Positions 1,412-44,602 of a stretch of DNA of 64,000 nt are shown one piece after another; position 1 is the first letter of the stretch, and each line of letters opens with the position of its first letter. A program made the position numbers and the translations under genes. Source of the stretch: a virus. The notes under the pieces are model-generated. The model was not told the DNA's origin and ran no database searches. It saw only the letters and a list, made by a program, of their open reading frames with translations. The stretch is from UHGV virus genome UHGV-1362809. One strand, given 5' to 3'.

Positions 1412-1453
1412 GGTTGACTTTTACCTTGGACGTGGTATAATAGGTATATACAG

Positions 1454-3202
1454 TTGAAAATGACTGGTAATGATTGCGAGGTAGCTATGTATAAAGAACC
1501 TGTGATGGAATTGTTGAAAGATTGTTGTCGAAAAGACTTGAGTAGCTTACTCGGTTTTTTACGGGAACGTGTTGTAGACCAGCCCTTTTATGCGTGCGTG
1601 ACGAACGACAACGAGCTGGTACTGGGTAAACGGTTTTTTACTCTCAATCAAAAACAACGTACTTTTGCTATTTTACATGAGCTGTTGCATATTAGCTATG
1701 GACATTTCAAGTTTTACAAAGCGGGTGTAAATCACAAAGTTATGAATATAGCTAATGATGCTGTTATCAATGAAGCTATTTTGCTCGGTAAGATAGTACC
1801 TGTGGAATATGTGCAGGCGGTTGACGGTATTCCTTTGTTAAAGAATACGGTGTACCGAAATAAGGACAATTTGGTTGCCTTTTGTAAGAGCTATTATGGT
1901 AATTTAAGACAGGGAGACCTTACAGACGGGTGGTTTAAACGGTATCTTACTTCCTCTATTGTGTACAAGGTATTGATGGAATCCCCTGTACCAGAGGTTC
2001 CTAAGGTTAGTCCTCGTAAATCTAACAGCCAAAACAGTCAGGATACAAATCAAAATACTGGTTCTGACGATAACAATGTTAAACAGGAGAATAATGATGA
2101 ATACAAAGACGAACACAAAGCAAACGGCAAAGAAGATGATGCTGAAAATACAGGGGATGAAGAATCCACAGGGGAAAGTGGAGGTTCGGATTACAGCCCC
2201 GACCGAGATTATGACGAAACCGAGTGTGATGGACAAGATAGCCAAGATAGCCGAGATAGTGAAGCAGATATAGACCTCGATGATGAGTCAGACCAAGATG
2301 ACGAAACACAGTCTGATGATGGGTCAGATTCTGATGACGAGTTAGACCAAGACGATGAAGCACAATCGAACAACGAATCTCAAAATAGTGACACGCAGGG
2401 GGAACAACCAGACCCCCTGCAATATGAACCTGTAGCTTTTGACCTTGAGAGCTTGGGTCAAGAATACCAAGACGATTTTGACGGTGCGTCTAACCCGTTT
2501 GAAGTGTACAAAAACTGTGACGGACAGTTTGACAACAGCAATCAGATTTGTGGTGGTTTGAGTTCCGACGAAGCCTATGAAAACGGTTATAATGCGTATC
2601 TTGTTAAAGAGGCATTATCAAGAAATATCGACTGGAAATCGGTTGTAAAGACGTGTATTGCACAGTCAAAAAAGACTATAAAGCAATATGGTTTTAGTGT
2701 TCCTAATCGTCGGAACTACAAACTGCAGCAGGTTACCCAGTCTAAGGTACAGCTCCCCAATCAATGTAGCACTCAACCCGTTCCTACGGTGCATATTTAT
2801 GTGGATACCTCGACAAGTGTGTCTGACTACAGTTTGGCGTGTATGATATATGAGATTAAGGATATCTACAAATTTAGCGGGAACATTGATTTGACTGTAC
2901 GGTTCTTTACTGAATATGTGTACGGGGAAATGAATACCAAAGCCAAAACCTTCAACTATCGTAATATGCCTAAATTGAGGCGTGGTGGAACCAGTTTTAA
3001 CGCTATTTATGCGCAGTACTACAGTCCTAATGGAGAAGTACACCATAAAATTCCCGATGTTTGTGTGGTAATTACGGACGGTTATTGTTGGATTGATAAC
3101 CAATTCTTACCCCTTCCCCTTGGACGTAAGACTGTATGGGTAACTGATAGAACGATGCGTATGCCCAACCCCAAATGTATCAACGTAGTAAGACCTTTTT
3201 AA
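1454..3202 (+). CDS. VWA-domain protein with N-terminal putative HExxH metallopeptidase domain and acidic low-complexity linker (DUF2201-like MoxR partner)
   Basis: ILHELLHISYGH motif; long D/E/S/Q-rich linker; C-terminal MIDAS-like DxSxS (VDTSTSVSD); directly downstream of MoxR ATPase. Confidence 0.65.
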   Translation: MKMTGNDCEVAMYKEPVMELLKDCCRKDLSSLLGFLRERVVDQPFYACVTNDNELVLGKRFFTLNQKQRTFAILHELLHISYGHFKFYKAGVNHKVMNIANDAVINEAILLGKIVPVEYVQAVDGIPLLKNTVYRNKDNLVAFCKSYYGNLRQGDLTDGWFKRYLTSSIVYKVLMESPVPEVPKVSPRKSNSQNSQDTNQNTGSDDNNVKQENNDEYKDEHKANGKEDDAENTGDEESTGESGGSDYSPDRDYDETECDGQDSQDSRDSEADIDLDDESDQDDETQSDDGSDSDDELDQDDEAQSNNESQNSDTQGEQPDPLQYEPVAFDLESLGQEYQDDFDGASNPFEVYKNCDGQFDNSNQICGGLSSDEAYENGYNAYLVKEALSRNIDWKSVVKTCIAQSKKTIKQYGFSVPNRRNYKLQQVTQSKVQLPNQCSTQPVPTVHIYVDTSTSVSDYSLACMIYEIKDIYKFSGNIDLTVRFFTEYVYGEMNTKAKTFNYRNMPKLRRGGTSFNAIYAQYYSPNGEVHHKIPDVCVVITDGYCWIDNQFLPLPLGRKTVWVTDRTMRMPNPKCINVVRPF

Positions 3203-11634: not shown

Positions 11635-12127
11635 GCTTACACTCGCTCCAAAATATAGGTGGAGGGTAGACGATACGCATACTGTTGCGGACTATAATAA
11701 TGATAAATTGTTTTCCACAAAGGGTGGCAGTGTAGTAGCAGTAGACGCCGACGGTGATATTATTTCACTATGTAAAAATGATGGAGACCTTTATTTTGGG
11801 TCTGATATACTAAAAGTTGCTGTTAAGAATGGAGGTAAAAAGTTAGACGCCTATGGTGATAGTTTGTACGAGTTTTATACAAAAAATGGATTTAGACCTA
11901 TTTCTTGGACACCTTTTAATAAAGAGTACGCTCCTCACGATTGGGGAGAAGATTTTGGGGACAATCATCATATAATTTTTTATGTATATGACCCTAATTA
12001 TATTTGCACTAAAACATACGAGGAATTTTTGCAAAGTGTTCCATGTTGTAAATATAATGATGGTTATGAAAAGGCACGAAAAATAAGGGATGAATATCTC
12101 TTAACTATGGAGAATAATAATGGCTAA
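11600..12127 (+). CDS. Hypothetical protein (start uncertain)
   Basis: 175-aa ORF; strong RBS ggtggagg inside the ORF suggests a non-ATG internal start. Confidence 0.4.
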   Translation: MLICINLLKVCKLTLAPKYRWRVDDTHTVADYNNDKLFSTKGGSVVAVDADGDIISLCKNDGDLYFGSDILKVAVKNGGKKLDAYGDSLYEFYTKNGFRPISWTPFNKEYAPHDWGEDFGDNHHIIFYVYDPNYICTKTYEEFLQSVPCCKYNDGYEKARKIRDEYLLTMENNNG

Positions 12128-15100
12128 GGATTATAATGCCAATTCAATCAAAGTACTGGACTACCCCGTCTGTTGCCACGTTCGCCCAGGAATGTATATC
12201 GGCGATACAACGGCTCCCAAGGGTGGATACTGCGATGGTGTGTTGCAGTGTGTAAAAGAAGCTCTTGATAATGCGGTTGACGAGGCTTCAAACAAGTATT
12301 CTAATGTTGTCGGTTTTGTGGCACAAAAGGACGGTTCCTTTGTAATTTATGATACGGGACGTGGTATTCCTGTTGAAGTACACCCCAAGTTTAAAAAAGA
12401 AAAGAAGTCAACTTTGGAGGTTATTTTTACCGTGTTACACGCAGGCGGTAAAATGGACTCTTCCAATTATGATAAATCGGTCGGTCGTAACGGTTTGGGT
12501 ATTTCTGTCACAAATGCTTTAAGCTCTTGGTTTCGAGTTACAACGTGCAGGAATCGTAAATGGTATACCCAGTTGTACCAAGAGGGGTATGTTAAGTCTA
12601 AAGTGCGGACTACCGTAAATCCTTCTAAAAGATTGGGTATAAAAGTTTCTAAAGGCACAGTAATTGAATTTTTACCCTTGTCCAAGGTGTTTAAAGATAG
12701 TATCAAGTGCGATTTGTCTGCTGTTTTTAAATGGATGAAGTTTAGTCAATACCTACTTCCTGGGATTACATTCAAGTACGAAAATCGTCTAAAAGGTAAA
12801 AGTAAGGAATTTTGTTCCACCAAGGGCATCGAGGGATACCTTAATAAACTGTGTAAGGATATCGGTTCTGAGGATATTACTGACACTTTTACGCTAAGAT
12901 ATCCTACTATTGACTTGTCTCTTAAATGGGTAAAAAATGACGACTGTATCATAGAATCCTATGTAAATGGAAGCCCTACTCCTAACGGAGGTACACACGT
13001 CAATGGGTTGAAAAAAGCTCTTACTGCTTGCATTTCTAACTATTCCAAACGGTCAGACTCCTTTAAGCCCGACGATTTGTTAGAGGGACTGGTGTGCGTT
13101 TTAAACTACAAAATGGACGAACCCTTGTTCGATAGTCAGACCAAGACAAAGTTGGTAAACAAAGGTACGGTGGATGATTTACCTGCTGAGATTGAAAAAG
13201 ATTTGACTAAGTGGGGCAGAGCTAATAAACAGGCATTATTGGAGATTATTCAACGTGCTAACGATATTAGGGGTGCAAAATTACAGTTTGAACAGGCTCG
13301 TAAGGCTATTGCAGCTGTTAAGGGTAAACGAGGTAAATCGTCGCTTCCCCCTTCTTCCAAATTTTCAGTTTCCACGACCAAAAATGCAAAGGATAGAGAA
13401 CTTTACATCGTGGAAGGTTTGAGTGCGGCAGGTACGGCTAAAGCAGCTAAGGATCACCATTATCAGGAGTCGTTGGCTCTTCGTGGTAAATTTCTTAATG
13501 CTGAAAAAACAACTGCAAGTCGTTTGTTTGAAAGTGATGAAGTGCTTAATATACTTAAAGCGATTGGGTATAATTCTGACGATAAATCTATAACCTATCG
13601 TGTCGGTAAAGTAATTATGTTGAGCGATGAGGATGATGATGGTTGCTTGGATGGTAACACCCGTATTTTGACTTTGGACGGTAAAAATCCAAAAATTAAA
13701 ACTTTGGTGAAGCAGTATGAAAAGGATAAGAACCCTATTGAAGTATATTCAGTAGATAAAGATGGTAATTTGGTAGTAGGAAAAGCTATTGAACCTCGTG
13801 TAACTAGAACTGTCAACAAAATGATTAAACTAACTTTTGACAACGGTTCTACGGTTTTGTGTACGCTTAACCATAAGTGGCTTATAAATAATCCTTCTAG
13901 GAAAGATGATAGAGTTATTTGGAAAGATGGTTTGGGGTATATACAAGCTAAGGACTTAAAGGAAACAGATAGTATTCGTAGCGTGTATCTTGAAAATAGA
14001 CATTCAGATGGGTCTTTTGTTTCTAATAGATATAAGTGTATTATAAATGCTTCCTCACAGGGAAAATACTGTGATAGAGATACTATGCCTGTGCATCAAT
14101 GGGTTAAATGTTGTGAGCAAAAAGGTTGGAAAAAATATAGAAAGGCTGGTAGGGGTATAGCTATACATCATATAGACGAAAACCCACAAAATAATTGCTC
14201 GAGTAATTTAAAGTATTTAACCCAAGCGGAGCATGGTAAGTTGCATATAAAGGAGCAGTGTGAAAAATATAATGGGTCTCAAAAACAGAAAGATGATTTA
14301 GCTAAAAACTGGGCTAACGGTGTTTATGATAAGATAAAGGATACTATTATTATATATAATAGATCAAAAAAACACAGAAAGCTGGTAAGTAAAATGAATG
14401 GAGATAAGAACCAATGCTTCAGACAGGCTATGGGAAAATTAAAGAACTATTATTTAACATTGAAGCATAACCACATAAAGGTAAATAGAGATAATTGGAA
14501 TCTCTATGTGGGTAAAAAGGGAATAGGTGGTGTTATGACTTGGGAGCTCTTTCATTCTAAAGGTATAAAGTTAAAAGATATTAAAACTTTTACTAATATG
14601 AGAGAAAGTGTCCGGTTGTACAAGTTATCTACTGTGAAAAACTGTTATCCTACTCAAAAACTTACAAAGTTTGAGTCTTTTTGTGACTATTTAAAGTCCA
14701 AGGGGTTGTCCGTTAATAAAGCTACATATAATAAGATAAGGATAAAGCTTATTCGTAAAAAGAAACTTTCTCAAGGGACGCCTAAATGGGAAACAATAAA
14801 GAACCATAAAATTGTTAAAAAGGAAGTTATTAATTCCGAACAGGAAGTTTATTGTATGACTGTTCCTGATTATGGTAACTTTATGGTGGCGGATAAGTAT
14901 GGTAACGGAATTGGTAGTAGCAATAGTCATATTGATACTTTGGTTTGTACATTGCTACAAAAGTTATGTCCTGATTTAATTGAAAAGGGTATGCTGTACA
15001 AGGTAAAGGCACCTTTATTCGTTGGGAGAACTGACTCTACCCAATATTATGGTGCTAGTATGAATGACCTAAAACGGCAGTATAAAGGAAAGTTTAAGTC

Positions 15101-15281
15101 TATTACCCGTATCAAAGGTTGGGGAGAAGCCAGTGCATCTTTGTTAAGAGAAGTTGCCTTCGACCCTGCTACCCGTAAACTAATTCAAATAAAACAGAGC
15201 GACAAAAAGGGTATACAACAGGCTAAGAAACTTTTGGGTGACGACATCGAAGCTCGTAGACAGTTGTTAAGTGAGGAATAA
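12120..15281 (+). CDS. Type II DNA topoisomerase ATPase subunit (GyrB/T4 gp39-like, GHKL + TOPRIM), interrupted by an intein
   Basis: GHKL motifs EALDNAVDEA, YDTGRGIP, GRNGLGISVTNALS; TOPRIM EGLSA...DEDDDG|intein|SHIDTL. Confidence 0.85.
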   Translation: MAKDYNANSIKVLDYPVCCHVRPGMYIGDTTAPKGGYCDGVLQCVKEALDNAVDEASNKYSNVVGFVAQKDGSFVIYDTGRGIPVEVHPKFKKEKKSTLEVIFTVLHAGGKMDSSNYDKSVGRNGLGISVTNALSSWFRVTTCRNRKWYTQLYQEGYVKSKVRTTVNPSKRLGIKVSKGTVIEFLPLSKVFKDSIKCDLSAVFKWMKFSQYLLPGITFKYENRLKGKSKEFCSTKGIEGYLNKLCKDIGSEDITDTFTLRYPTIDLSLKWVKNDDCIIESYVNGSPTPNGGTHVNGLKKALTACISNYSKRSDSFKPDDLLEGLVCVLNYKMDEPLFDSQTKTKLVNKGTVDDLPAEIEKDLTKWGRANKQALLEIIQRANDIRGAKLQFEQARKAIAAVKGKRGKSSLPPSSKFSVSTTKNAKDRELYIVEGLSAAGTAKAAKDHHYQESLALRGKFLNAEKTTASRLFESDEVLNILKAIGYNSDDKSITYRVGKVIMLSDEDDDGCLDGNTRILTLDGKNPKIKTLVKQYEKDKNPIEVYSVDKDGNLVVGKAIEPRVTRTVNKMIKLTFDNGSTVLCTLNHKWLINNPSRKDDRVIWKDGLGYIQAKDLKETDSIRSVYLENRHSDGSFVSNRYKCIINASSQGKYCDRDTMPVHQWVKCCEQKGWKKYRKAGRGIAIHHIDENPQNNCSSNLKYLTQAEHGKLHIKEQCEKYNGSQKQKDDLAKNWANGVYDKIKDTIIIYNRSKKHRKLVSKMNGDKNQCFRQAMGKLKNYYLTLKHNHIKVNRDNWNLYVGKKGIGGVMTWELFHSKGIKLKDIKTFTNMRESVRLYKLSTVKNCYPTQKLTKFESFCDYLKSKGLSVNKATYNKIRIKLIRKKKLSQGTPKWETIKNHKIVKKEVINSEQEVYCMTVPDYGNFMVADKYGNGIGSSNSHIDTLVCTLLQKLCPDLIEKGMLYKVKAPLFVGRTDSTQYYGASMNDLKRQYKGKFKSITRIKGWGEASASLLREVAFDPATRKLIQIKQSDKKGIQQAKKLLGDDIEARRQLLSEE
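13644..14924 (+). mobile_element. Intein (427 aa) with HNH homing endonuclease, inserted in the TOPRIM DxDxDG-SHI motif
   Basis: Starts CLDGNTRILTLDG (Hint block A), internal HNH IAIHHIDENPQNN...HGKLH, ends ...GSSN followed by extein SHI. Confidence 0.75.
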
Positions 15282-17763
15282 AATGAAAAAAGCACAGAAT
15301 GTTATCACAGATTATAATTCCTTTGTTAGAAGCAGTTATAAAAGGTATGCAATTAGTGTATTGAGCGACCGTGCGTTACCAGATTTTCGTGACGGTTTGA
15401 AGCCCGTTCAGAGAAAAATGTTGTGGACTGCCTATAAACTTGGTCTACATAATAACAAGGCTTTTACAAAATGTACGAATATTACTGGTAATTTGATGGC
15501 TCGTTTTTCCCCGCACTGTTTAGACGGTAATACTCAAATACCGTTATTAAACGGGGAAAAAATTAAATTAAAGGATATGGATTATAATAAAGTTTATGAT
15601 GTTCTTTCAGTTGACGAAAGCGGTAAAATAGTTGCTGCTAAGCTTTCAAAGGCTCGTAAAGGTAAAATTGTTGATAAAGAATATCATATCGTATTGTCCA
15701 ATGGTACAGTACTACCTTATTGTTCCAACAATCACCAGTTTTATATGGGTAATTCCACTTGGAAGAGGGCAGACGAAATACAGGTTGGAGATGAAGTGTA
15801 TGGAGGGACTTGGCTCTTTGAACAGGATTATTGTCCTATCGTAAGTTATTCTTCAAATAGTAAAAATACGAGAAGAACTGGAGTACATAGAATAGTTGAC
15901 TTCACTTACAGAGGTATTCTAAATAAAACTAATGAGAATACTGGGGATAAGTTACAAGTTCATCATAAGGACTTAAATACCCGTAATAATTTAATATCTA
16001 ACTTGAAAAGACTATCTTATAATGACCACATGAGATTACACAGTAGTTCTGGAGGTAATACTGTTAATGAAGTATTAAGGTCTTCAAAACGAGTAGTAAA
16101 AGCTAATAAGGAAAAAAATTCCTTTTTACTCTCAAGTTATAATAAATACAGATGGTTATATGTAGCCATTAAAGCAGTTAAAATTTTAAAGGAGAATAAA
16201 CTTCCCCTTACATGGAAAAACTATGATAGTTTAAGAACTAAGATACGAGGTTTGACCCTAAAGACCACGTTGCTTGAAAGGGGTTGGGATTTAAAAAGAC
16301 TATACAAAGAAAGAAATTGGACTTTTGATAAAACACCAATTCTTGGAAAAGTAACAAGAGCCTTATTAGGAAATAATAAACGACATCCCTATGAAGGAAA
16401 AGGCTACGGTTGGAGTAAAGGTTTAAGTCATAATTGGAATAACAGTAACATTAAACCAAAACTCTATGTAAAAGAAATAATAGTTAAAAAAGTAAAAAGA
16501 AAACAACTCTATGACTTTACTGTTAAAAAGCATCAAAATGTTTTGATTATTTTGGGAGATAACAAGACGTTTATTTGTGCCCATAATAGTGATGCCTATG
16601 GGGTGCTGGTTAATTTGACTGGTAATAGCGTAAAATTCAATCTTTTTGAAGGAAACGGGAACTTTGGTAACTACATTGACGAAGCTGCCGCACCCCGTTA
16701 TACGGAAGCCAAATTAAGTAAGTATAGCGACGACTTTTTGTTGAATCAGAACTATTTGGAAGTGTGTAAAATGCTTCCAAACTATTTGGACACCGAGGAA
16801 GAACCTATGTTGTTACCCTCCTTGTTGCCTGTGTTGTTTTTGATTGGATGTCAAGGTATTGCGGTAGGTTATAAAACTGAAATTCCAACCTTTACTCTTA
16901 AGTCTCTTATAAAAGTTGTCAAAAAAGGGTTGGTCAAAAAACTAAAAAGTAAGGATTTACTGTGTTTAGAGTTTGATGACATCTATAACGCTCAGTATGT
17001 TGGGACTGACCAGCAGTTGTTGGATTATTATACTTCTGGTAAGGCAGCCCTACCTTTTAATGTATTCTATAAATTGGATAGCACTAAATCATTTACTATC
17101 AATTCTATCATAGGAAATGGGGAAACTATGATTAACAAGATAGAATCTGACGATAGGGTTTATCAAGTAAATGATTTGACAAGTGGCAACGACATCAAAA
17201 TACAAGTTGTGTTGAAGCCTTCTATAGCCAGTAAGGACGTGAAAAATGTAGCTGCTGATATTGTGGCTAAGTTAAAAATAAATAGAATATTTATTACAAA
17301 CGTTATCAAAAGAGTTGTTACTGAACAAAAGGACGGAGACCATACGTTTTATGACGAGGGTGCGGTCTTAAAAGAGTCTAACCCAGTTGACTTGCTCAAC
17401 GAATGGATTAAATGGCGTGTTGAACTTGAAGTAAAGATGCTTAACAACCAAGTATCTAAGACAAATGACAAGGTAAACCAGTTGGAGTTTTATCGTTATT
17501 TAATTTCTAAATTAGATATTATCTTTAAAGTACTCAAATCGAAAACAAATGATTTGAAGGGAGCGATGAAGAAGGCTCTTAAGTGTACCGATGACCAAGC
17601 TCAAACGGTGTTAGATATGCCTGTTAGACGGCTGAGTAAATTGAGCGACGACGAGTTAAAGGGACAAATTAAGGACTTACAGCAGTATTCAAAGGACTGT
17701 AAAAAATGGTTGAAAAAACCACAAGATAAAATTTTGCAAGATTTGAACAAGGTAAAGGTGTGA
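15271..17763 (+). CDS. Type II DNA topoisomerase DNA-cleavage subunit (GyrA/T4 gp52-like), interrupted by an intein
   Basis: N-terminal YAISVLSDRALPDFRDGLKPVQRKML; HPH|intein|SDAYGV...GNGNFGN matching the GyrA HPHGDSAVY...GQGNFGS region. Confidence 0.85.
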   Translation: MRNKMKKAQNVITDYNSFVRSSYKRYAISVLSDRALPDFRDGLKPVQRKMLWTAYKLGLHNNKAFTKCTNITGNLMARFSPHCLDGNTQIPLLNGEKIKLKDMDYNKVYDVLSVDESGKIVAAKLSKARKGKIVDKEYHIVLSNGTVLPYCSNNHQFYMGNSTWKRADEIQVGDEVYGGTWLFEQDYCPIVSYSSNSKNTRRTGVHRIVDFTYRGILNKTNENTGDKLQVHHKDLNTRNNLISNLKRLSYNDHMRLHSSSGGNTVNEVLRSSKRVVKANKEKNSFLLSSYNKYRWLYVAIKAVKILKENKLPLTWKNYDSLRTKIRGLTLKTTLLERGWDLKRLYKERNWTFDKTPILGKVTRALLGNNKRHPYEGKGYGWSKGLSHNWNNSNIKPKLYVKEIIVKKVKRKQLYDFTVKKHQNVLIILGDNKTFICAHNSDAYGVLVNLTGNSVKFNLFEGNGNFGNYIDEAAAPRYTEAKLSKYSDDFLLNQNYLEVCKMLPNYLDTEEEPMLLPSLLPVLFLIGCQGIAVGYKTEIPTFTLKSLIKVVKKGLVKKLKSKDLLCLEFDDIYNAQYVGTDQQLLDYYTSGKAALPFNVFYKLDSTKSFTINSIIGNGETMINKIESDDRVYQVNDLTSGNDIKIQVVLKPSIASKDVKNVAADIVAKLKINRIFITNVIKRVVTEQKDGDHTFYDEGAVLKESNPVDLLNEWIKWRVELEVKMLNNQVSKTNDKVNQLEFYRYLISKLDIIFKVLKSKTNDLKGAMKKALKCTDDQAQTVLDMPVRRLSKLSDDELKGQIKDLQQYSKDCKKWLKKPQDKILQDLNKVKV
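15517..16587 (+). mobile_element. Intein (357 aa) with HNH homing endonuclease in the GyrA-like subunit
   Basis: Begins CLDGNTQIPLLNGE, HNH-like VHHKDLNTRNNLISNL...HMRLH, ends ICAHN followed by S. Confidence 0.75.
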
Positions 17764-31210: not shown

Positions 31211-31408
31211 ATGAAAATTGAAAATATTTCTTTTAGCGTCGAACGTGTGATAAATACGGGCAACTATGAGTCAGTTCGGATTAGAGCTGAAATGGGTGGA
31301 TCAACAGAGGACGTAAAGTCTGATATGAAATTGCTTAAAAAGGCAGTATATAAATGTATCGACGCTGAGTCTGATGTAGTATTAGAAAAATATGGAAATG
31401 ACAAATGA
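31211..31408 (+). CDS. Hypothetical protein
   Basis: RBS aaggag upstream. Confidence 0.45.
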   Translation: MKIENISFSVERVINTGNYESVRIRAEMGGSTEDVKSDMKLLKKAVYKCIDAESDVVLEKYGNDK

Positions 31409-31866
31409 AACTTATCAAGAAAATCAAACGACTGTTCAATAAGATTATTACCCCTATGATTTTGGGTATTCCTGTGTACTCTACTAAGTTTTTTAGACAT
31501 GTTTGTCATAAGAACTTTTTGCAGGGTATTACATACGCTTTGTCCAAAAAACAAAAGGCTCTCAATAAAATAAAAAATAAAACTATCTGGGATAACGTTG
31601 TTAATTTTTCCATCGTTTATTCTACTTTGTGTAGTACCAAGGTAAAGAATAAATGGGTACAAGAAGCAAAAGACTTTTGTTGTTATTATGCCTTTACTTG
31701 TTGTCACGGGCAGACTAAGGAATTTAAAGCCGCTGTCATTAAACGTATTGTGGAGGCACCGCATTTTAAATCTTTGTCTGAAGACCAAGTGAAAACTTTT
31801 ATTTCCTCAGTGACTTGCAATCATAAAGACTTGATGGAACTTTTGTTTTTGAAATGTAGGATATAA
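31405..31866 (+). CDS. Hypothetical protein
   Basis: 153-aa ORF. Confidence 0.45.
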   Translation: MKLIKKIKRLFNKIITPMILGIPVYSTKFFRHVCHKNFLQGITYALSKKQKALNKIKNKTIWDNVVNFSIVYSTLCSTKVKNKWVQEAKDFCCYYAFTCCHGQTKEFKAAVIKRIVEAPHFKSLSEDQVKTFISSVTCNHKDLMELLFLKCRI

Positions 31867-32085
31867 ATGAAGGAAGAACTTATAAAATTAAAGGGCGAAG
31901 TTGTAGAAAAATGTCCTAATGCTTTGTTTCGTGTAAAGCTAGAAAATGAAATGAATGTACTGTGTACTCTTAATGGTAAGATGCGCAAGAATAGTATTTA
32001 TGTGTTGGTTGGGGACGCTGTGGACGTGGAGTTAAGTACTTATGACTTTACCAAAGGGCGTATTTGCTTTAGGTATAAAAAATGA
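31867..32085 (+). CDS. infA: Translation initiation factor IF-1 homologue
   Basis: 72 aa, collinear with bacterial IF-1: ...MFRVELENG...GKMRKNYI...GD.V.VEL.PYD..KGRI.FR... conserved throughout (about half identical to E. coli IF-1 by eye). Confidence 0.85.
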
Positions 32086-32243
32086 TTATACTTGTATTTT
32101 TCCTTGGAGTTTTTGTAGGGCTGATAGTGGATGAGTTTATTACAAGATATTTATTTGCAAAGTATGACTTGTATTCCGAATACACTACACTAATGGATGA
32201 AATGCACGAAAGGTCTGAAGATGAAAATCGTTCCTCAAAAAGC
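32082..32243 (+). CDS. Possible small membrane protein, translationally coupled to infA via ATGA overlap
   Basis: 54-aa [22 protein letters not shown]...; below ORF-track cutoff. Confidence 0.3.
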
Positions 32244-33162
32244 TGAACTAATTGCAGTACAACATCCCCTTCGGGACGTAAATCCTTTAAAAATTGTGGA
32301 GTCTTGCGGTAGGGTGTGTTATCGGTCTGAAGATAAAATAACCGATGATTCTTATAAGGATTTTTGTGCTAAGTTGTACAAAATGGGACATTGGGCAGTT
32401 TTTGAACATGGAGTTTATACATTTAGTATTAATAAACATAGTTTCTTAAATCTGTGTGAATGTAAAGGTTTTGCAGATTTATACGGCGTGCAATATACTC
32501 CTGTCAATGACGGCCACTATTGTGAAGTAAGCTTGAATTTAAGCCACTTATACCAACTTGTTAAATGGTGCAAATCCTTAGATAAAGATTCTTATGAATA
32601 CCATTGTTTGCACGTTTTGGTTGGTTCATTTCCTAAAGAAGTGCTAGATTTAGCTGGTGAAAAACCTTCGTCCTATGTGTATCCACTTACAAGTAATATT
32701 GACGTAAATTCTGTATTCTATACGTTTAAACTAACTACATTTAGAAGTGTAGCTGATGAATTGTTTAGACATAGACGTAACGCCTTAAATATGGAAAGCT
32801 CCCGTTATTGTTCCTATAATAAGGATAAATTCGATAGCTCCATCAAAACGTGTGAGCAACATTGGGTATTAAATAAGGAAGTATATAAGGACAAAACAGA
32901 ATCCTTAAATATGAAACTGGTGAAGTATCTAAGAGAAGCTGAAAAGAATTATCTCGATTTGGTAAATAGTGGTATGCGACCCCAAGACGCCAGAGCTGTA
33001 TTGCCCTTGGACTACTGTGTGGACTGTTGTATTACAATGTCTATGAAACAGTTTGAGTATATATACAAAATTAGAACTAGCGACGCCGCTCACCCAAATA
33101 TCCGTCATTTATTAAAACTAATGAAGGAGAAATTAGATGAAAGCTGTACAACGTGCCTTTAG
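32221..33162 (+). CDS. thyX: Flavin-dependent thymidylate synthase ThyX
   Basis: ThyX signature RHRxxxxxxxS present as RHRRNALNMES; N-terminal ...ELIAVQ...RVCYRS typical of ThyX; start placed at [10 protein letters not shown]. Confidence 0.75.
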   Translation: MKIVPQKAELIAVQHPLRDVNPLKIVESCGRVCYRSEDKITDDSYKDFCAKLYKMGHWAVFEHGVYTFSINKHSFLNLCECKGFADLYGVQYTPVNDGHYCEVSLNLSHLYQLVKWCKSLDKDSYEYHCLHVLVGSFPKEVLDLAGEKPSSYVYPLTSNIDVNSVFYTFKLTTFRSVADELFRHRRNALNMESSRYCSYNKDKFDSSIKTCEQHWVLNKEVYKDKTESLNMKLVKYLREAEKNYLDLVNSGMRPQDARAVLPLDYCVDCCITMSMKQFEYIYKIRTSDAAHPNIRHLLKLMKEKLDESCTTCL

Positions 33163-37222: not shown

Positions 37223-37927
37223 ATGCTAAATATAGCTTATACTCGTTACCAGTTGACGACTAATAAACTGGTTTCAGAAGCGATTGCCTCTGAAGGTATT
37301 TTGGAAGGTGCTGGTGTTTTCAGTACTTTAGAAAACGGTATTCAGGTCGTCAGCAACGGCGCTCCTGAAGAAACCAATGTGTTTAGTGGTATTGCCTTCA
37401 GTCAGTATCGCGCTCAGACTGCTTCCATCAAAGTTGAAGAATTTGTTGCTCCTGCCAATGGTGGCTCGGTCGTTTTAGCCCGTACACCTGTTGATGGTAT
37501 TGCTAAAGTGTTGGTCAAAATTGACGGCACGAAAGCTACGGTTCAGGCTGGTGCAGCTGCGGCGGCTGGTCAGGTTCAGTTGGTTGGTAACGTTTTGACG
37601 TTCAACGCTGAAGACGCTGGCAAAAAGGTTTATGTTTGCTACAAATATAACCTAACTGTTGCTGAAATCGAATCCATTCCCTTTATGGGCGATGGTGTTC
37701 CAGGAGCTCCTGTTTCCGCTCAGACGAATACTGTTTCAGTTGCTCAGAAGGGTGAGTTCTACACCGACCAGTTCGATGCTTCTTGCGATTGGGCTCAGGA
37801 CGGTTTAGTCATTCACTTGGTCGAAGGCGGTATCTTCACAACTGCTGAAGAAGGTTGTGCGGTTAATGGTGTTGTTTGTCACGTTCCTACGGCAGACGTA
37901 CCATTCTTAGGTATTGAATTGTTGTAA
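37223..37927 (+). CDS. Abundant virion structural protein (head decoration/minor head?)
   Basis: Strongly biased codon usage (ggt/gct/gtt/cgt) and raised GC, shared only with neighbouring head genes. Confidence 0.35.
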   Translation: MLNIAYTRYQLTTNKLVSEAIASEGILEGAGVFSTLENGIQVVSNGAPEETNVFSGIAFSQYRAQTASIKVEEFVAPANGGSVVLARTPVDGIAKVLVKIDGTKATVQAGAAAAAGQVQLVGNVLTFNAEDAGKKVYVCYKYNLTVAEIESIPFMGDGVPGAPVSAQTNTVSVAQKGEFYTDQFDASCDWAQDGLVIHLVEGGIFTTAEEGCAVNGVVCHVPTADVPFLGIELL

Positions 37928-39021
37928 TGGAGATTGGACACATGACAATGGAAACTTTATTTCGCTCCTCAACGGCTATGCACCCAACCGAAGCTAACCT
38001 GCGTGGTTCTGCTTCAAAATTAGTTGGTGCTAATGGAGAACTAAATGCCGTCAATAAGGAAGACGCTGTTCGTATTTTCAAACAGTTGGCTTCTGCTTTG
38101 GAAAATAAAGAAATTACTCGCCCCGAACAGGCTTCTGCTGAAAAGAAATCTGAACGTCGTAAGGCTCTAATCGAAGCTATGGCTTCTGACCAGAAATGGG
38201 CTGAAATGGGTGCTGCTTTGTCAGCGGCTTTGTACACGACTGCGAATCGTGACGGCTTTATGCGTCGTTTGTTCGCTCGCCAGGACTTAGCTCAGGGTAA
38301 CATTCCTCGTTTTCCTGTCAAGTTCAAAAACACCGTTGCGATGGTTGCGGCTGGTGCTGGTCAGGTCATTCCTACGAATGTTCGTGACAAATACGTTATG
38401 CCCCCTGAATTTTACATCGAAGTCAATCTTTGGATTGAAGAACGTGAATTAGCTCAGGGTACAGGCGACCAGTTGGAAGACAAATTCTACGAAGGTCAGG
38501 AAGCCATTCAGGTTCAGGAAGACCGTTACTGGAAGAAATTGTGCGACCAGACAATCGGTGTTTCCAACGACCTGCAGATCTTGGGTGGTGGTTTAGACCC
38601 CGACTCATTGGCTCTAATGAAAGAACAGGTCATTCGTTATGCTCTACCCGCTGCTAACCTACTGTTCGCAGTTGACGGACTAAACGATTTGAACGGAACG
38701 GTCTTCGGCGGTTGGTTTGACCCCGTTACCCAGTACGAAATCGTTATGTCTGGTACACTTGGTCAGCTGAGCGGTATGACGGTTACGACCGATGCTTATC
38801 GTGAACCAATGCTTAAAGTGTTCAACCGTGGTGAATTCTACATAACGTCAACGCCTGAATATCATGGTGGTTATACCGACCGTGGTCCTATTCAGTCGAA
38901 GACGAAAGAATCGAACGGCGAAGGCATGGGACCAAGTCGCGGCTGGTATATGTTCGAGCTAATGAGCATGGTCATGCACAACGCTCGTTCGTTTGTTAAA
39001 GGTACAAAAACCTTCAACTAA
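37927..39021 (+). CDS. Putative major capsid protein
   Basis: 364 aa, the same strong codon bias, position after a scaffold-like gene; no motif-level confirmation possible. Confidence 0.4.
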   Translation: MEIGHMTMETLFRSSTAMHPTEANLRGSASKLVGANGELNAVNKEDAVRIFKQLASALENKEITRPEQASAEKKSERRKALIEAMASDQKWAEMGAALSAALYTTANRDGFMRRLFARQDLAQGNIPRFPVKFKNTVAMVAAGAGQVIPTNVRDKYVMPPEFYIEVNLWIEERELAQGTGDQLEDKFYEGQEAIQVQEDRYWKKLCDQTIGVSNDLQILGGGLDPDSLALMKEQVIRYALPAANLLFAVDGLNDLNGTVFGGWFDPVTQYEIVMSGTLGQLSGMTVTTDAYREPMLKVFNRGEFYITSTPEYHGGYTDRGPIQSKTKESNGEGMGPSRGWYMFELMSMVMHNARSFVKGTKTFN

Positions 39022-39107
39022 TTAGGTCAGCGTAAGTACTTCTTGTGAATGTATATGTAGTAGTATTTTTTGTACTGCTTAGATATGCGTTGCAAGGAGT
39101 ACTTACA

Positions 39108-39206
39108 ATGAAGTTTAAACAAGTTTTACTCTCGCTTAAATCATACTTTAAGATTCTTTATGAAGGTTTAGTTTGGGAATCCAACGGTATTGTTAAAGAT
39201 TTAAAG
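39108..39206 (+). CDS. N-terminal part of a small protein; candidate -1 frameshift fusion with the downstream frame
   Basis: RBS aaggag 8 nt upstream of ATG 39108; frame A turns into low-complexity nonsense (IIVIRIRIL) after the T_TTA_AAG site. Confidence 0.3.
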
Positions 39207-39538
39207 TTAAGAAAGCTTATACACAAGTTTTCAAGTGTAAGCCTAAAAATACATTTGAATACTGGTATAATCGTCATAAGGATAAGGATTTTAAATCCAA
39301 AGTTACTTGTCCAATGTGCGACAACGTTATAGACGTTGAATGTAAGTATTGCTGTAATAAATGTCGTAGACCAAATCCTAATTACAAAGTTTACAAAAAT
39401 AATTGGTATAAGAAATACGATACGAACTTAGATGCAATACTTCACACTGGTACATTGTTTGGCGGTTCTACGCATAAACGTATTACAAAACAATCACTTG
39501 TCAGATTGTATGGTTTAAGTGAGAGTAAAACTTTATAA
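39197..39538 (+). CDS. Cys-rich zinc-finger-like protein (CPMC...CKYCCNKC) in the -1 frame, lacking its own upstream start
   Basis: Frame B is open from 39197 and protein-like (KVKKAYTQVFKCKPKN...), but the first ATG is at 39314 inside the CxxC pair. Confidence 0.35.
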   Translation, partial: RFKVKKAYTQVFKCKPKNTFEYWYNRHKDKDFKSKVTCPMCDNVIDVECKYCCNKCRRPNPNYKVYKNNWYKKYDTNLDAILHTGTLFGGSTHKRITKQSLVRLYGLSESKTL

Positions 39539-39553
39539 CAAGAGGATTATATT

Positions 39554-42004: not shown

Positions 42005-44602
42005 ATGAGTTTTGGCATCACGGCTGGGGTGTACATGTATGAAGTTGATAGAAGTAGCTTTGTTACTTCTACAGCGACATCTATTGGGGCTTGCGTGGCA
42101 GGTTTAAAACAGGGTCCTTTAGGTCCTAAGTATATTACCTCTACGGAAGAGTTCCTTAGATACTACGGAGAAACCCCTGCTTCTTGGAGTAAAGCTCCTT
42201 ATTGTATCAAGGCTGCCCTAAGGCAGACTTCTATGTTTTATGTCAATCGTGTTGTTAATGGAGCTTTGTACGGTGGTACGGCATACTTTAATGACGTTGA
42301 CAATAATCGCACAATGACGGCTCCTTTTCCTACGGGGTCTTCTTTGGACTACGAAAGTGGCTCTCGTTCGTTGAGTCTATTGACTTTAAGTTCCTATTTA
42401 TCTGAAGGTCAGAAAATTTCAGTTGGCATCAATGATGGTGAAAACAACATCGTTACTGTTGAACAGGAATTTTCAACTTCTTCTAACGAAACATTGTTAG
42501 ATTTTGCCACTAAGATTAACGACGAGCTGGCTAAACTGGGTAGTGGTGGTAATGCGTCCGTTATTAAAGAATGGACGAGTGCCGCTCGTAATCAGCAAAT
42601 TACCCTAACATTTAACGAACAGCTAACTGCTGAAAACTTTACAAAAATTAGCGGTAAGATACTTCCCTTAGGTGGTGTAGCTCAACCGTATGAAGTTGGA
42701 TTTACTGAATCCAATGACAAAACACTTCAGGCTATCGCCGATGCCTTTAGTAAAATTGTTGGGTTTAATGCCGCCGTCGTTCCCGGATTGACTGGTGAAA
42801 ACAGCAACCGTAGTATTCAAATCAATAGTGAATTAGCTGGTCCTGATAACTTCACCCTCCAATTTCAAATTGAAGGAACGGCTACTGCAAGTCAGAGTGT
42901 TACTAAGCAGGGTCATGGTGTGTATGACGACCGAGTGATTCAGGTGACCTTCCCAGAAAATAGTCAGGCTTTCTTTGCGGATCCTGATGTTACTGGTAAT
43001 GCTGCCCCTGTACTTTCTATTCAGACCGATGTGAAGTTTTTAGACATTTTTGCGCAGAATCCTGGCGAATGGGCTAATAACTATGGCGTAAAAATAACGA
43101 ATGTTGACTTGGGTATTGCTTCTAGACATACCATTACATTGTCTCAGGCACTATTGCCTACAAACATCATTTCAGCTGACCTAATTTGGAAAGGTGAAAC
43201 GCATACAGTAGCAGTAGAGTTTAGTCAAACCAGTGATAACACCTTAGACCTATTTGCTAAGGCTATTACAGAAAAACTTGCTCCTTTGGGTGGTTTCGGT
43301 GAAGCTTTTGTTACAAAGGTTGCCGGAGGCTACGATAATGACAGAGACGTTATTGTTGTTTCTCCTAATGCTGAAGACGATTTAGAAATCGAAAATGTAA
43401 TCGTTACTGGAGGAACGAGTCAGGCTATTTGCACCGTTAAAAAGACATTAGATGCTATTCCTTCTTCCCGTACATTTACTTTAAGCGTGTATTCAAGAAG
43501 CGATATAAACACCCCTATTGAAACGTTCAAATGCGCCTTTAATAAACAAACTGATAGCAATGGTAATCAGTTGTTCGTTGAAGACGTTGTTAATAACGAA
43601 TCCAGCGGTTCTATTTATATTCGTGTGAAGACCAATCCAAGTGCGGAATTAAAAATCTTGCAGGAAGATTCGGTTATCAGATGGATGGCAGCTGGTGACG
43701 ATGGTGCATTACCGACAAACGCACAAATCATCAAGGGCTGGAATGATTTTGAAGACCCAGAAAAAATTACCGTGCGTGTTTTGATTAACGGTGGTTATAC
43801 GAACGTTGCAGTTCAGCAAGCAATGGATAGTTTAGCACAGTCCCGTAAGGATTGCTTCGCAATTTTGGATTGCCCAAGTGATAAACAATCTGCTACTGCC
43901 TATGTCAACTATCGTAAATATGATCTCAATATCAATAGTAGTTATTCGGCTATTTATGGACCAGACCTATTGATTACAGATGATACTACGGGCGAACAGT
44001 TGTATGTTCCTCCCAGTGGTCACGTTGCCGCACAGTATTTCTATACTGATTCAGTAAGAGATACTTGGTGGGCTCCTGCGGGTCTTAACCGTGGTCTTGT
44101 TCTTAATGTTCAAGGGTTGAGATTCCAGTATGGTAAAGGCGATAGACCCATTTTGGATATGGCTCAGTGCAACTACATTCGTAGTATGTCTGGTCTTGGT
44201 TACCCAATTTGGTCTGAACACACTTTGCAGTCTAAATCAAGTGCGCTGAGCGACGTTCACGTTAGACGTTTGCTTATTACTCTTGAAGTTAGTATTGCCG
44301 ATTACTTGCAGTATGGTTTGTTTGATCCTAATGACCAGTACACCAGAGACGCTTTGGTGGATAGCATTAGAGATTACTTGACAACTATTCAGCGTCGCCG
44401 TGCGTTCCAGATTACCACCGAGGGTGAAGATGGGTTCTATGTCGTTAGCGATGAATCCAACAACCCTGCGGAACAGGTTGACCAAGGCATTATGGTGATT
44501 GACGTAGCTATTAAGCCTATTAGAGTTGCGAAATTCATCAGACTTAATGTTACGATTGCTAAGACAAGTGCTAACTTTACTGAACTATTAGAAGCAGCGT
44601 AA
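42005..44602 (+). CDS. Contractile tail sheath protein
   Basis: N-terminal pattern GVYMYEVDRSS...TSIGACVAGLKQGPLG...ITSTEEFLRYYGE typical of myovirus sheath N-termini; 865 aa; followed by a tube-sized gene. Confidence 0.65.
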   Translation: MSFGITAGVYMYEVDRSSFVTSTATSIGACVAGLKQGPLGPKYITSTEEFLRYYGETPASWSKAPYCIKAALRQTSMFYVNRVVNGALYGGTAYFNDVDNNRTMTAPFPTGSSLDYESGSRSLSLLTLSSYLSEGQKISVGINDGENNIVTVEQEFSTSSNETLLDFATKINDELAKLGSGGNASVIKEWTSAARNQQITLTFNEQLTAENFTKISGKILPLGGVAQPYEVGFTESNDKTLQAIADAFSKIVGFNAAVVPGLTGENSNRSIQINSELAGPDNFTLQFQIEGTATASQSVTKQGHGVYDDRVIQVTFPENSQAFFADPDVTGNAAPVLSIQTDVKFLDIFAQNPGEWANNYGVKITNVDLGIASRHTITLSQALLPTNIISADLIWKGETHTVAVEFSQTSDNTLDLFAKAITEKLAPLGGFGEAFVTKVAGGYDNDRDVIVVSPNAEDDLEIENVIVTGGTSQAICTVKKTLDAIPSSRTFTLSVYSRSDINTPIETFKCAFNKQTDSNGNQLFVEDVVNNESSGSIYIRVKTNPSAELKILQEDSVIRWMAAGDDGALPTNAQIIKGWNDFEDPEKITVRVLINGGYTNVAVQQAMDSLAQSRKDCFAILDCPSDKQSATAYVNYRKYDLNINSSYSAIYGPDLLITDDTTGEQLYVPPSGHVAAQYFYTDSVRDTWWAPAGLNRGLVLNVQGLRFQYGKGDRPILDMAQCNYIRSMSGLGYPIWSEHTLQSKSSALSDVHVRRLLITLEVSIADYLQYGLFDPNDQYTRDALVDSIRDYLTTIQRRRAFQITTEGEDGFYVVSDESNNPAEQVDQGIMVIDVAIKPIRVAKFIRLNVTIAKTSANFTELLEAA

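Follow-up and report, generated by a model that had tools for sequence, protein, structure and literature searches.

A phage-encoded homologue of translation initiation factor IF-1 in an undescribed jumbo myovirus, with tyrosine at a decoding-centre contact site

The DNA analysed here, referred to as the window, is a stretch of 64,000 nucleotides from the virus genome UHGV-1362809, in which all genes lie on one strand and 95% of the sequence is coding. It harbors an infA-like gene for a 72-aa homologue of translation initiation factor IF-1, which is preceded by a 153-aa ORF and followed by a 54-aa ORF and by thyX (Table 1). The 153-aa ORF begins with an ATGA overlap on the preceding 65-aa ORF (31211-31408) and its TAA stop (31864-31866) directly abuts the IF-1 ATG; its position is conserved in seven further loci (L002, L003 and L009 to L013), and in the window it is part of the same tightly packed gene string. 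Shine-Dalgarno motifs are strongly enriched in front of genes across the window: AGGAG is found in 20 of the 86 upstream regions, where 1.2 would be expected. The thyX gene starts at the ATG at 32221, behind an AAAGG, and shares its first 26 nt with the end of the 54-aa ORF. A thyX gene call of 313 aa was also obtained in L002, L010 and L013, and the adjacency of IF-1 and thyX is kept in all three relatives of the clade. Scans for promoters and terminators near IF-1 returned consensus-level matches only, which do not define a transcription unit.

Table 1. Positions of the IF-1 gene, its neighbours and its putative ribosome-binding site in the window
Feature	Position	Strand	Basis or remark
153-aa ORF upstream of IF-1	31405..31866	+	No Pfam or PHROG match
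Shine-Dalgarno-like AGGA	31858..31861	+	Within the 3' end of the 153-aa ORF; 5-nt spacing to the IF-1 ATG
infA-like gene, 72-aa IF-1 homologue	31867..32085	+	Family and PDB matches, fold model, selection, residues
54-aa ORF, N-terminal transmembrane-like helix, acidic C-terminal tail	32082..32246	+	ATGA start overlap, dN/dS, hydropathy
thyX (flavin-dependent thymidylate synthase), 313 aa	32221..33162	+	PF02511; TIGR02170, 104.9 bits

A preliminary description of this DNA had presented the IF-1 gene as coupled through an ATGA to a small hydrophobic ORF. The overlap is present, as the ATGA at 32082-32085 is common to the IF-1 stop and to the start of the 54-aa ORF, but a special coupling does not follow from it, since 4-nt overlaps account for 14 of the 88 junctions in the window and are the commonest junction type (12 of the 14 being ATGA). 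The arrangement is thus ordinary gene packing, and the 54-aa ORF is coupled to IF-1 only in the way that many neighbours in this genome are coupled. The small ORF itself is a real gene, because it is 73% identical at the amino-acid level to its counterpart in a relative with 79% DNA identity, with a dN/dS of 0.12, and because many stops interrupt the other two frames. Its N-terminus is hydrophobic (Kyte-Doolittle mean of 2.5 over residues 1-19) and its tail acidic. No relatives were found in Pfam, NCBIfam, PHROG or the IMG/VR scan, and the gene is an ORFan of this phage clade alone. Nor is it bound to IF-1: in a more distant locus (L189), whose IF-1 is 68% identical, the small ORF is missing and the IF-1 gene runs straight into thyX.

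The assignment of the 72-aa ORF, which the preliminary description had called unmistakably IF-1, is confirmed by sequence, by a curated family threshold and by predicted fold, and we regard it as a bona fide IF-1 homologue. The protein is a single OB-fold domain lacking extensions. It scores 93.7 bits against the NCBIfam equivalog TIGR00008 (infA; cut-off 61.15), covering model positions 1-69 of 69, and 73.3 bits against Pfam PF01176 (E = 1.2e-20), which is well over the cut-off of 30.2. A sequence search of the PDB matched it to 12 solved IF-1 structures (E = 1e-13 to 2e-20). The collinearity with Escherichia coli IF-1 that had been proposed for the whole length also holds, as the two proteins share 53% identity over 70 residues in an ungapped alignment; the E. 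coli entries 1ah9 and 9fco fall in the same ungapped register, and the match is free of gaps over residues 2-70 of 1ah9 and residues 4-70 of the Thermus thermophilus structure 1hr0_W. The motifs named at that stage were GKMRKN and KGRI.FR, found at residues 37-42 and, as KGRICFR, at residues 63-69, and FRVELEN, which has to be amended, as the letters read FRVKLEN.

The AlphaFold2 model of the protein (pLDDT 88.2) has predicted strands at residues 5-16, 20-25, 30-35, 51-57 and 63-69 and a predicted helix at residues 37-41, corresponding to the short helix between strands 3 and 4. When the model was compared with known structures by Foldseek, ranks 1-14 were all bacterial IF-1, 1hr0_W among them, with TM scores of 0.77-0.93; against the 30S-bound E. 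coli IF1 (9fco_I), the predicted structure superimposes with a TM score of 0.93 and an rmsd of 0.9 A. Other OB-fold families were rejected as the identity of the ORF: S1 reached 14.7 bits (cut-off 22) and RsgA_N 26.6 bits (cut-off 27), Pfam returned no CSD match that would indicate a CspA-like protein, and no Csp appears among the 50 fold matches listed, in which the first RsgA structure stands at rank 31.

The genomic context is that of a phage. The window encodes a major head protein, a tail sheath, topoisomerase II, a primase, a dNMP kinase and ThyX, and contains no tRNA genes. An identical IF-1, together with the same capsid gene, is found on contigs of 234,035, 235,353, 237,166 and 237,192 bp from independent assemblies, hence the source is a jumbo phage, and we regard it as a jumbo myovirus, as yet undescribed, with a genome of about 235 kb as assembled. 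Its capsid has relatives in phiRSL1, PaBG and the Erwinia jumbo phages (35-39% identity), in none of which an IF-1 was scored, and a megablast of the 15 kb around IF-1 against 50,697 phage records gave no DNA match.

Could the gene nevertheless be a cellular infA, brought in by chimeric assembly or contamination, or a recent passenger with no role in the phage? Such cases occur among public records, and the GenBank 'phage' matches obtained by tblastn from Acinetobacter phage MD-2021a, MT836093 and other 'Bacteriophage sp.' scaffolds were left out as cellular DNA: the MD-2021a contigs carry leuBCD, truA and ansA, and MT836093 encodes an IF-1 almost identical to one from an alphaproteobacterium of the sheep colon. 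Short Listeria, Staphylococcus and Enterococcus 'phage' records, which are probably cellular DNA as well, were likewise left out of the phage comparison. For the present gene this explanation is effectively refuted, as the gene order around it is found again on 24 or more contigs from numerous samples (the four of 234-237 kb included) and in diverged relatives, no cellular relative is more than 64% identical, the gene composition is that of the phage, selection is strongly purifying, and the stop and start codons abut or overlap on both sides.

The protein is under strong purifying selection. Compared with a relative at a dS of about 1.27, the gene shows 27 synonymous and five non-synonymous differences (dN/dS = 0.023), and among five strains that are ~98% identical all differences in IF-1 are synonymous; 49 indexed blocks of public assemblies contain the identical protein. 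Cellular IF-1s share 53-64% identity with it, the highest values coming from Alphaproteobacteria (59-63%), towards which the scan is biased. No cellular protein above 64% was found among 1.84 billion cluster representatives, a search whose matches were mostly over-long representatives, none of them a close relative, and which serves only as an upper identity bound, and none was found in a search of 5.8 billion clusters. With 64% as the highest identity to any cellular IF-1, the protein was not recently captured from a host. It is long resident in the phage lineage: the gene has the composition of the surrounding phage DNA (GC 35.2%, GC3 34.7%), and relatives at 79% DNA identity and at 68% IF-1 protein identity preserve the synteny around it. 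In a neighbour-joining tree of 172 IF-1 sequences no sister group of the window clade was resolved, because 70 residues carry too little signal.

The residues through which IF-1 touches the 30S subunit are known from the literature. In T. thermophilus, Pro18, Arg23 and Arg41 contact h44 and A1492, Lys2, Gly38 and Lys39 contact the 530 loop, and Tyr60 and Asp61 contact uS12, with further contacts by Arg64 and Arg66 and, in E. coli, by Arg69; T. thermophilus Arg46 touches the flipped-out A1493 and is described as conserved across homologues. The phage protein keeps P17, R22, R40, K2, G37, K38, Y59, D60, K63, R65 and R69 of these, K63 standing for T. thermophilus Arg64 at a site where 80% of relatives have Lys. 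The site of Arg46, which is treated here as a conserved contact rather than as a formal criterion of the family, is occupied by Tyr45, so that the basic residue is absent and the contact with A1493, as read from the alignment, would be lost. Of the 177 closest database proteins, 97% have Arg or Lys there, as do all 80 cellular loci, and Tyr occurs in none of either set, while Tyr45 is common to the whole clade (the window and the relatives P0001, P0002 and P0003), down to 68% identity. The consensus residues His29, His34, Glu7, Leu16 and Pro58 are changed as well; position 29 carries Met instead of His, position 34 Thr instead of His or Tyr, position 7 Lys instead of Glu and position 16 Cys instead of Leu. 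These changes, including Tyr45, mean that the phage protein may act differently from host IF-1; Tyr45 lowers the confidence in functional equivalence to cellular IF-1, not the confidence in homology.

Non-basic residues at this site recur among viral homologues. IMG/VR holds at least 589 stretches that encode IF-1 relatives, and in the best 80 of these, selected as those most similar to the phage query, the site reads R27, K18, N16, Q13, T4, A1 and S1, which makes 44% non-basic, or 12 of 34 clusters at 70% identity. The IF-1s with a non-basic site lie in clearly viral contexts, with PhoH, virion proteins, an Rz-like spanin, tail fibres and an ATP-dependent DNA ligase. Loci of the Q type had been suspected, from an upstream gene of ~430 aa, to be cellular secY-adk-map-infA operons, yet they are viral, because Pfam shows this gene to be the ATP-dependent DNA ligase.

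One reading of these data is that the phage protein is a specialised IF-1, which docks in the 30S A-site but, through an altered contact with the decoding centre, retunes initiation in favour of phage mRNAs or impedes initiation by the host, instead of just supplementing it. Tyr45 and the changes at positions 29, 34 and 43 would then alter its affinity, its release kinetics or the IF3-dependent check on fidelity. The clade-wide retention of Tyr45, its absence from both reference sets and the frequency of non-basic residues in viral homologues, including Asn in the huge phages Phosso and LR756508, would fit this reading, as would the reported conservation of the Arg that contacts A1493. However, the comparison of viral with cellular residues ignores kinship and sets 80 viral loci picked for likeness to the query against a mostly alphaproteobacterial cellular sample from genome_contigs that forms only three clusters at 70% identity, and stacking on A1493 might still be possible for a Tyr, which would make the change functionally conservative. 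We therefore hold the specialised reading to be possible but rather doubtful.

E. coli IF1 has RNA-chaperone activity and is able to replace Csp proteins. The phage protein could have its main role away from the ribosome, where it would serve as a small RNA chaperone or an antiterminator in the manner of cold-shock proteins. The OB fold is common to RNA binders of the S1 and Csp type, as the sub-threshold S1 and RsgA_N scores reflect, and the loss of one decoding-centre Arg would matter less for a chaperone. Such a role is nonetheless unlikely, as the residues for uS12 (Tyr60/Asp61) and for the 530 loop (Gly38/Lys39) are strictly kept at a dN/dS of 0.02 and have no obvious part in generic RNA chaperoning, and the top fold matches of the predicted structure are all IF-1 or eIF1A, not Csp proteins.

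The reading that we prefer, and hold to be probable, is that the 72-aa protein is a functional, phage-adapted IF-1 that supplements or replaces host IF-1 in infection. Judged solely from its neighbours, it would be made during infection from a tightly packed early or middle block of nucleotide-metabolism and replication genes, which comprises dCMP deaminase, a DNA methylase, the dNMP kinase, thyX and the primase. As for cellular IF-1, its most likely binding place is the host 30S A-site, where helix 44, the 530 loop and uS12 would surround it, and it would assemble 30S initiation complexes together with IF2 and IF3 of the host. By supplementing or replacing the host factor, it may allow phage mRNAs, which carry ordinary Shine-Dalgarno sites, still to be initiated while a 235-kb genome is being expressed. 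The proposals of the preliminary description, a bias of initiation towards phage mRNAs or compensation for host shutoff, are hypotheses. Whatever the benefit to the phage may be, a protein kept by very strong selection over long phage evolution must be useful.

Seen in many public assemblies, the present jumbo lineage is of modest interest alone, and the comparative lead lies in a ribosome-binding face that is whole except for one decoding-centre Arg, at a site where about one-third to one-half of the closest viral IF-1 lineages, but none of the sampled cellular ones, have a non-basic residue. A tentative generalisation, which we put forward as speculation, is that viral IF-1s, this one included, are not just duplicates of the host factor but a recurrent, re-engineered class in which the Arg that grips A1493 is replaced (by Tyr here, and by Asn, Gln or Thr in many further phages) and the neighbouring helix is changed, shifting initiation towards the phage. 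If so, such an IF-1 would bind or leave the 30S A-site differently and would be a small natural tool with which many phages, not only jumbo phages, tune the decoding centre at initiation. The huge-phage literature has raised the question of whether such proteins add to host translation or re-tune it, and in the literature searched we found no test of it and no experimental evidence on any phage IF-1.

Compared with bacterial IF-1 (E. coli 1ah9 and 9fco, T. thermophilus 1hr0), the phage protein has the same length of 72 aa, aligns gaplessly at 44-54% identity with the solved structures, is predicted to form the same five-stranded OB barrel with a short helix, and presents the same residues to h44, the 530 loop and uS12 (GKMR, YD, GR and the C-terminal Arg69). 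In contrast to cellular infA, it is encoded among nucleotide-metabolism genes, and its identity to cellular IF-1s of just 53-64% differs from the 64-69% that solved bacterial IF-1s of different phyla share with the Clostridioides difficile protein (PMC10913371).

A phage IF-1 is not new. The preliminary description had considered translation factors rare in phages, particularly outside jumbo phages, but the source is itself a jumbo phage, and IF-1 has been reported in Lak megaphages (10.1101/356790), in huge phages from many ecosystems (PMC7162821) and in soil huge phages (PMC11748809) and is a core gene of Jug phages (PMC12880540). The PHROG family phrog_30201 covers the phage protein, and the present case adds one more lineage to the known carriers, alongside the IMG/VR homologues counted above. 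The IF1s of huge phages (Lak, those of Al-Shayeb et al., 2020, Jug, Sinorhizobium Phosso and Bacteroides DAC) are likewise single-domain proteins encoded by genomes of >200 kb, with a presumed role in redirecting or sustaining host translation. They belong to a different lineage, with 37-56% protein identity to the present IF-1, and at the Arg46 site, where the present phage has Tyr, Lak and DAC have Lys, Phosso and LR756508 have Asn and LR756511 has Arg.

A further, widespread set of IMG/VR loci (for example L001/L119, L116, L149 and L121) shows the order PhoH, two virion proteins, IF-1, Rz-like spanin and, in parts of the set, peptide deformylase. Several of these contigs measure 35-180 kb, which is below jumbo size as assembled. 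Their IF-1s share 50-63% identity with the window protein, with which no clade was resolved, and the downstream gene is a spanin of 155-170 aa, whereas the 54-aa ORF and then thyX follow in the window. Like the present IF-1, they are non-basic at the Arg46 site, and in L001 the IF-1 stop overlaps the start of the downstream membrane protein as ATGA, just as in the present phage.

The 72-aa product of the window is IF-1, which is established by four lines of evidence, namely family thresholds, sub-threshold scores of alternative families, solved structures and the predicted fold. It scores 93.7 bits over the full length of the NCBIfam infA equivalog TIGR00008 (cut-off 61.15) and 73.3 bits with Pfam PF01176 (cut-off 30.2), the profile check proposed in the preliminary description, and S1 (14.7 bits) and RsgA_N (26.6 bits) both remain below threshold, with no match to the cold-shock domain in the Pfam search. 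Twelve distinct solved IF-1 structures match it in an ungapped register (E = 2e-20 to 5e-13), and it shares 53% identity with E. coli IF1. An AlphaFold2 model built from 31 sequences (mean pLDDT 88) shows the five expected strands and, between the third and the fourth, a short helix, and the best 14 PDB fold matches to this model are all bacterial IF-1, among them T. thermophilus IF1 on the 30S (1hr0_W) and 30S-bound E. coli IF1 (9fco_I; TM 0.93, rmsd 0.9 Å over 70 residues), ranking before archaeal and eukaryotic IF1A. Family scores, structures and fold thus bear out the preliminary call of IF-1 against the outcome named there as contrary, namely low similarity or a CspA-like protein. The coordinates, ORF lengths and ATGA overlap described there are also correct, as are the motifs GKMRKN and KGRI.FR, whereas 'FRVELEN' actually reads FRVKLEN.

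Features of the window around the IF-1 gene and elsewhere
Feature	Position	Strand	Remarks
ATPase gene (phrog_1297), then gene for 582-aa DUF2201 protein	209-3202	+
GyrB-like topoisomerase II subunit (1053 aa)	12120-15281	+
ParC/GyrA-like topoisomerase II subunit (830 aa)	15271-17763	+
Upstream ORF, 153 codons	31405-31866		stop directly abuts IF-1 ATG
AGGA	31858-31861		5 nt 5' of IF-1 ATG
IF-1 ORF, 72 codons	31867-32085	+	ATG start
Small ORF, 54 codons	32082-32246	+	shares ATGA with end of IF-1 ORF
thyX	likely start 32221 (313 residues)		downstream of small ORF; start 32197 (321 aa) in ORF list
IrrE/M78-type protein, 124 aa	33362-33736	+	two genes downstream of thyX
Major head protein	37927-39021
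Tail sheath	42005-44602
DnaG-type primase, dNMP kinase, dCMP deaminase, DNA methylase	within window

In the A site of the 30S subunit, IF1 is flanked by h44, the 530 loop and uS12; it acts together with IF2 and IF3 and keeps A1492 and A1493 in a flipped-out state (PMC4611024; PMC13345285). According to the literature, T. thermophilus IF1 contacts h44, A1492 and A1493 through Pro18, Arg23, Arg41 and Arg46, the 530 loop through Lys2, Gly38, Lys39 and Met42, and uS12 through Tyr60 and Asp61, and further listed contacts are Arg64 and Arg66 as well as Arg69 in E. coli. With numbering taken from ungapped registers (window = E. coli mature = T. thermophilus minus one), the window IF-1 retains P17, R22, R40, K2, G37, K38, Y59, D60, K63, R65 and R69. 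The most economical reading of the sequence is that the phage protein would bind the A site of the host 30S and function as IF-1. Its neighbours in nucleotide metabolism and replication suggest early or middle expression, and promoter and terminator scans returned consensus-level matches only. The benefit would presumably be a sustained or boosted IF-1 supply for phage mRNAs during the long infection of a large phage, as has been proposed for huge phages generally (PMC7162821). Taken as a whole, the explanation of a functional IF-1 at the host 30S A site that sustains initiation on phage mRNAs is probably correct.

One contact residue differs, as position 45, which corresponds to Arg46 of T. 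thermophilus IF1 and to the A1493 contact, is Tyr. Of the 177 closest database proteins, 90% have Arg at this site, 7% have Lys and none has Tyr, and 80 cellular loci from a genome scan, mostly Alphaproteobacteria and with frequencies not corrected for phylogeny, have Arg (73) or Lys (7). Tyr45 is kept throughout the phage clade, down to 68% identity, and positions 29, 34 and 43 of the same region are likewise atypical, both in the window IF-1 and in numerous viral homologues. The 80 best IMG/VR homologues, which were chosen by similarity to the query, have R27, K18, N16, Q13, T4, A1 and S1 at the site, and 12 of the 34 clusters of viral IF-1s at 70% identity are non-basic. These non-basic IF-1s are truly viral, with PhoH, virion structural proteins, an Rz-like spanin, peptide deformylase, tail fibres and a phage-type ATP-dependent DNA ligase as neighbours. 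Asn is found in the huge phages Phosso and LR756508, Arg in LR756511, and Lys in the Lak and DAC phages and likewise in the sole Bacteroidota (Salinivenus) IF-1 sampled. An IF-1 of altered function, with a changed A1493 contact, could be read from a residue that is absent from the sampled cellular loci and closest proteins yet kept through the clade, and from the recurrence of non-basic residues in verified viral IF-1s; however, the composition of both samples and the uncorrected frequencies weaken the comparison, and Tyr could be a functionally conservative replacement that stacks on A1493. We consider this rival unlikely and rank it below a functional IF-1. That viral IF-1s have been recurrently re-engineered at the A1493 contact is a slightly more doubtful proposition still. 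Tyr45 is a single residue-level peculiarity that points to a testable question.

The infA-like gene is an old and well-maintained phage gene. In a relative with 79% DNA identity (L002/L003) the gene order is as in the window, and IF-1 is 93% identical, with 27 synonymous and 5 non-synonymous differences (dN/dS 0.023, dS about 1.3), and in five strains about 98% identical to the window all IF-1 differences are synonymous. The 68% identical IF-1 of contig L189 (P0003) is again encoded directly upstream of thyX. Outside this clade, neither a word-indexed search of 5.8 billion clusters nor an exhaustive phmmer scan of 1.84 billion representatives returned a protein more than 64% identical, and the nearest cellular proteins are alphaproteobacterial IF-1s (59-63% identity) in ordinary cellular contexts such as nusA-infB-rbfA-infA; for scale, C. 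difficile IF-1 is 64-69% identical to solved bacterial IF-1s of other phyla (PMC10913371). The GC content (35.2%) and GC3 (34.7%) of the gene match the surrounding phage DNA, and a neighbour-joining tree of IF-1s resolved no sister group for the clade. Recent host capture is ruled out by selection, the lack of a cellular relative above 64% identity in these searches, the phage-like composition and the synteny in relatives, and an assembly artefact by the selection, the composition and the synteny in diverged relatives.

The 54-aa ORF is a real gene, as its 49-aa counterpart in L002/L003 is 73% identical, dN/dS is 0.12 and stop codons close the other frames. Its N-terminus (residues 1-19) forms a single strongly hydrophobic segment, its tail is acidic, and no relatives were found in Pfam, NCBIfam, PHROGs or IMG/VR. 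The 4-nt overlap is the commonest junction type in the window (14 of 88 junctions, 12 of these ATGA) and recurs two genes upstream of IF-1, hence the ATGA at IF-1 is normal packing for this genome and probably permits termination-reinitiation coupling, as elsewhere in the genome. An unrelated family of phages with IF-1 has, on at least one contig (ATGA in L001), a comparable overlap between the stop of IF-1 and the start of a membrane protein; this Rz-like spanin of about 160 aa has no similarity to the 54-aa ORF, and the shared arrangement is treated here as coincidence. The likely thyX start follows from sister-contig gene calls of 313 residues and an AAAGG upstream, and implies a 26-nt overlap with the end of the small ORF. 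The gap between IF-1 and thyX holds only the 54-aa ORF in the window, two additional genes (98 and 225 aa) besides the small ORF in L002/L003 (L002 4330-5523) and nothing in L189 (486-495), so that the small ORF is not obligatorily linked to IF-1, and the gap looks like a hotspot at which small accessory genes are gained and lost.

The window holds about 89 ORFs, all on the + strand and covering 95% of the sequence, and no tRNA genes. Of 86 regions upstream of genes, 20 contain AGGAG (1.2 expected), and this strong enrichment of Shine-Dalgarno motifs indicates a host with SD-led initiation. Public assemblies contain the identical 72-aa IF-1 in 49 indexed blocks, and contigs of 234,035, 235,353, 237,166 and 237,192 bp from different projects carry both it and the identical capsid protein, hence the genome is about 235 kb, that of a jumbo phage. 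Its capsid protein shares 35-39% identity with the capsids of phiRSL1, PaBG, BcepSauron and a group of Erwinia and Xanthomonas phages (195-265 kb). No DNA-level relative was found among 50,697 deposited phage records, so the lineage appears undescribed there.

Inteins with HNH homing endonucleases appear to interrupt, in frame, the genes of both topoisomerase II subunits (Pfam Intein_splicing at residues 520-923 with HNH at about 679-706 in the GyrB-like protein; residues 91-426 with HNH PHROG matches at about 190-269 in the ParC/GyrA-like protein). The 582-aa protein combines DUF2201_N metallopeptidase-like and VWA-like DUF2201 domains and may hold a mid-protein insertion, since its PHROG match also mentions an HNH endonuclease. 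An indel of about 645 bp just 3' of the major head gene (about 39020-39550, against 17222-18331 in L009/L010) distinguishes strains that are about 98% identical; at this site L009 and L010 have a DUF7487 gene of 363-369 aa, of which the window and L011-L013 have a truncated form or none. The IrrE/M78-type protein has the metallopeptidase motif HEITH and scores 22.8 bits with PF06114, just over the cut-off.

At least 589 stretches of IMG/VR are IF-1-like, and several of these lie on contigs far shorter than 200 kb. One widespread phage group (L149, L153, L159, L162, L121, L133, L136, L123, L116 and L119, the last being L001) shares a conserved locus of PhoH (opposite strand), two virion structural proteins, IF-1 with Asn, Thr or Ala at the Arg46 position, an Rz-like spanin and an unknown gene, with peptide deformylase also in L121; in L001, the putative spanin is followed by two lipoprotein-like ORFs (possible o-spanins). 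A second viral type (L114, L129, L137, L167, L169), with Gln at this position, lies directly 3' of a 430-450 aa ATP-dependent DNA ligase, with collagen-like (tail-fibre-like) proteins nearby. Cellular-looking infA genes occur in phage-labelled GenBank records (CAKLQH020000005.1/CAKLQF020000005.1, L108; MT836093.1, L099; MT840008; MT835508; MT836419), as on an 'Acinetobacter phage MD-2021a' contig, where ansA, truA, gadX and leuBCD surround infA, and a sheep-colon alphaproteobacterial MAG (L019) has nearly the same IF-1 as MT836093. Such records, which probably reflect mislabelling or host DNA in viromes, inflate apparent phage IF-1 counts.

The identification as IF-1 is solid and the selection evidence clean, and no experimental study of any phage IF-1 was found in the literature searched. 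The window IF-1 matches phrog_30201 ('unknown function'; E = 1.3e-23), and an IF-1 is annotated in Sinorhizobium phage Phosso. The window IF-1 comes from an apparently undescribed jumbo-phage lineage. The preliminary remark that translation factors are rare in phages holds in relative terms, but IF-1 in a 235-kb phage is in itself no surprise to the specialist, as IF1 has been reported from Lak megaphages (10.1101/356790), from huge phages of diverse ecosystems, alongside IF3 and ribosomal proteins (PMC7162821), from soil huge phages (PMC11748809) and, as a conserved core gene, from Jug phages (PMC12880540). In Bacteroides phage DAC19 (L101, MT074139.1), the homologue at 627-932 is annotated as 'hypothetical protein', and its N-terminus is, as annotated, extended by a basic stretch of about 30 residues (MANEKRQVKSNYRKGGVQNQQSSSDRKFRT...), reminiscent of the basic extensions reported at the N-terminus of phage ribosomal protein S21.
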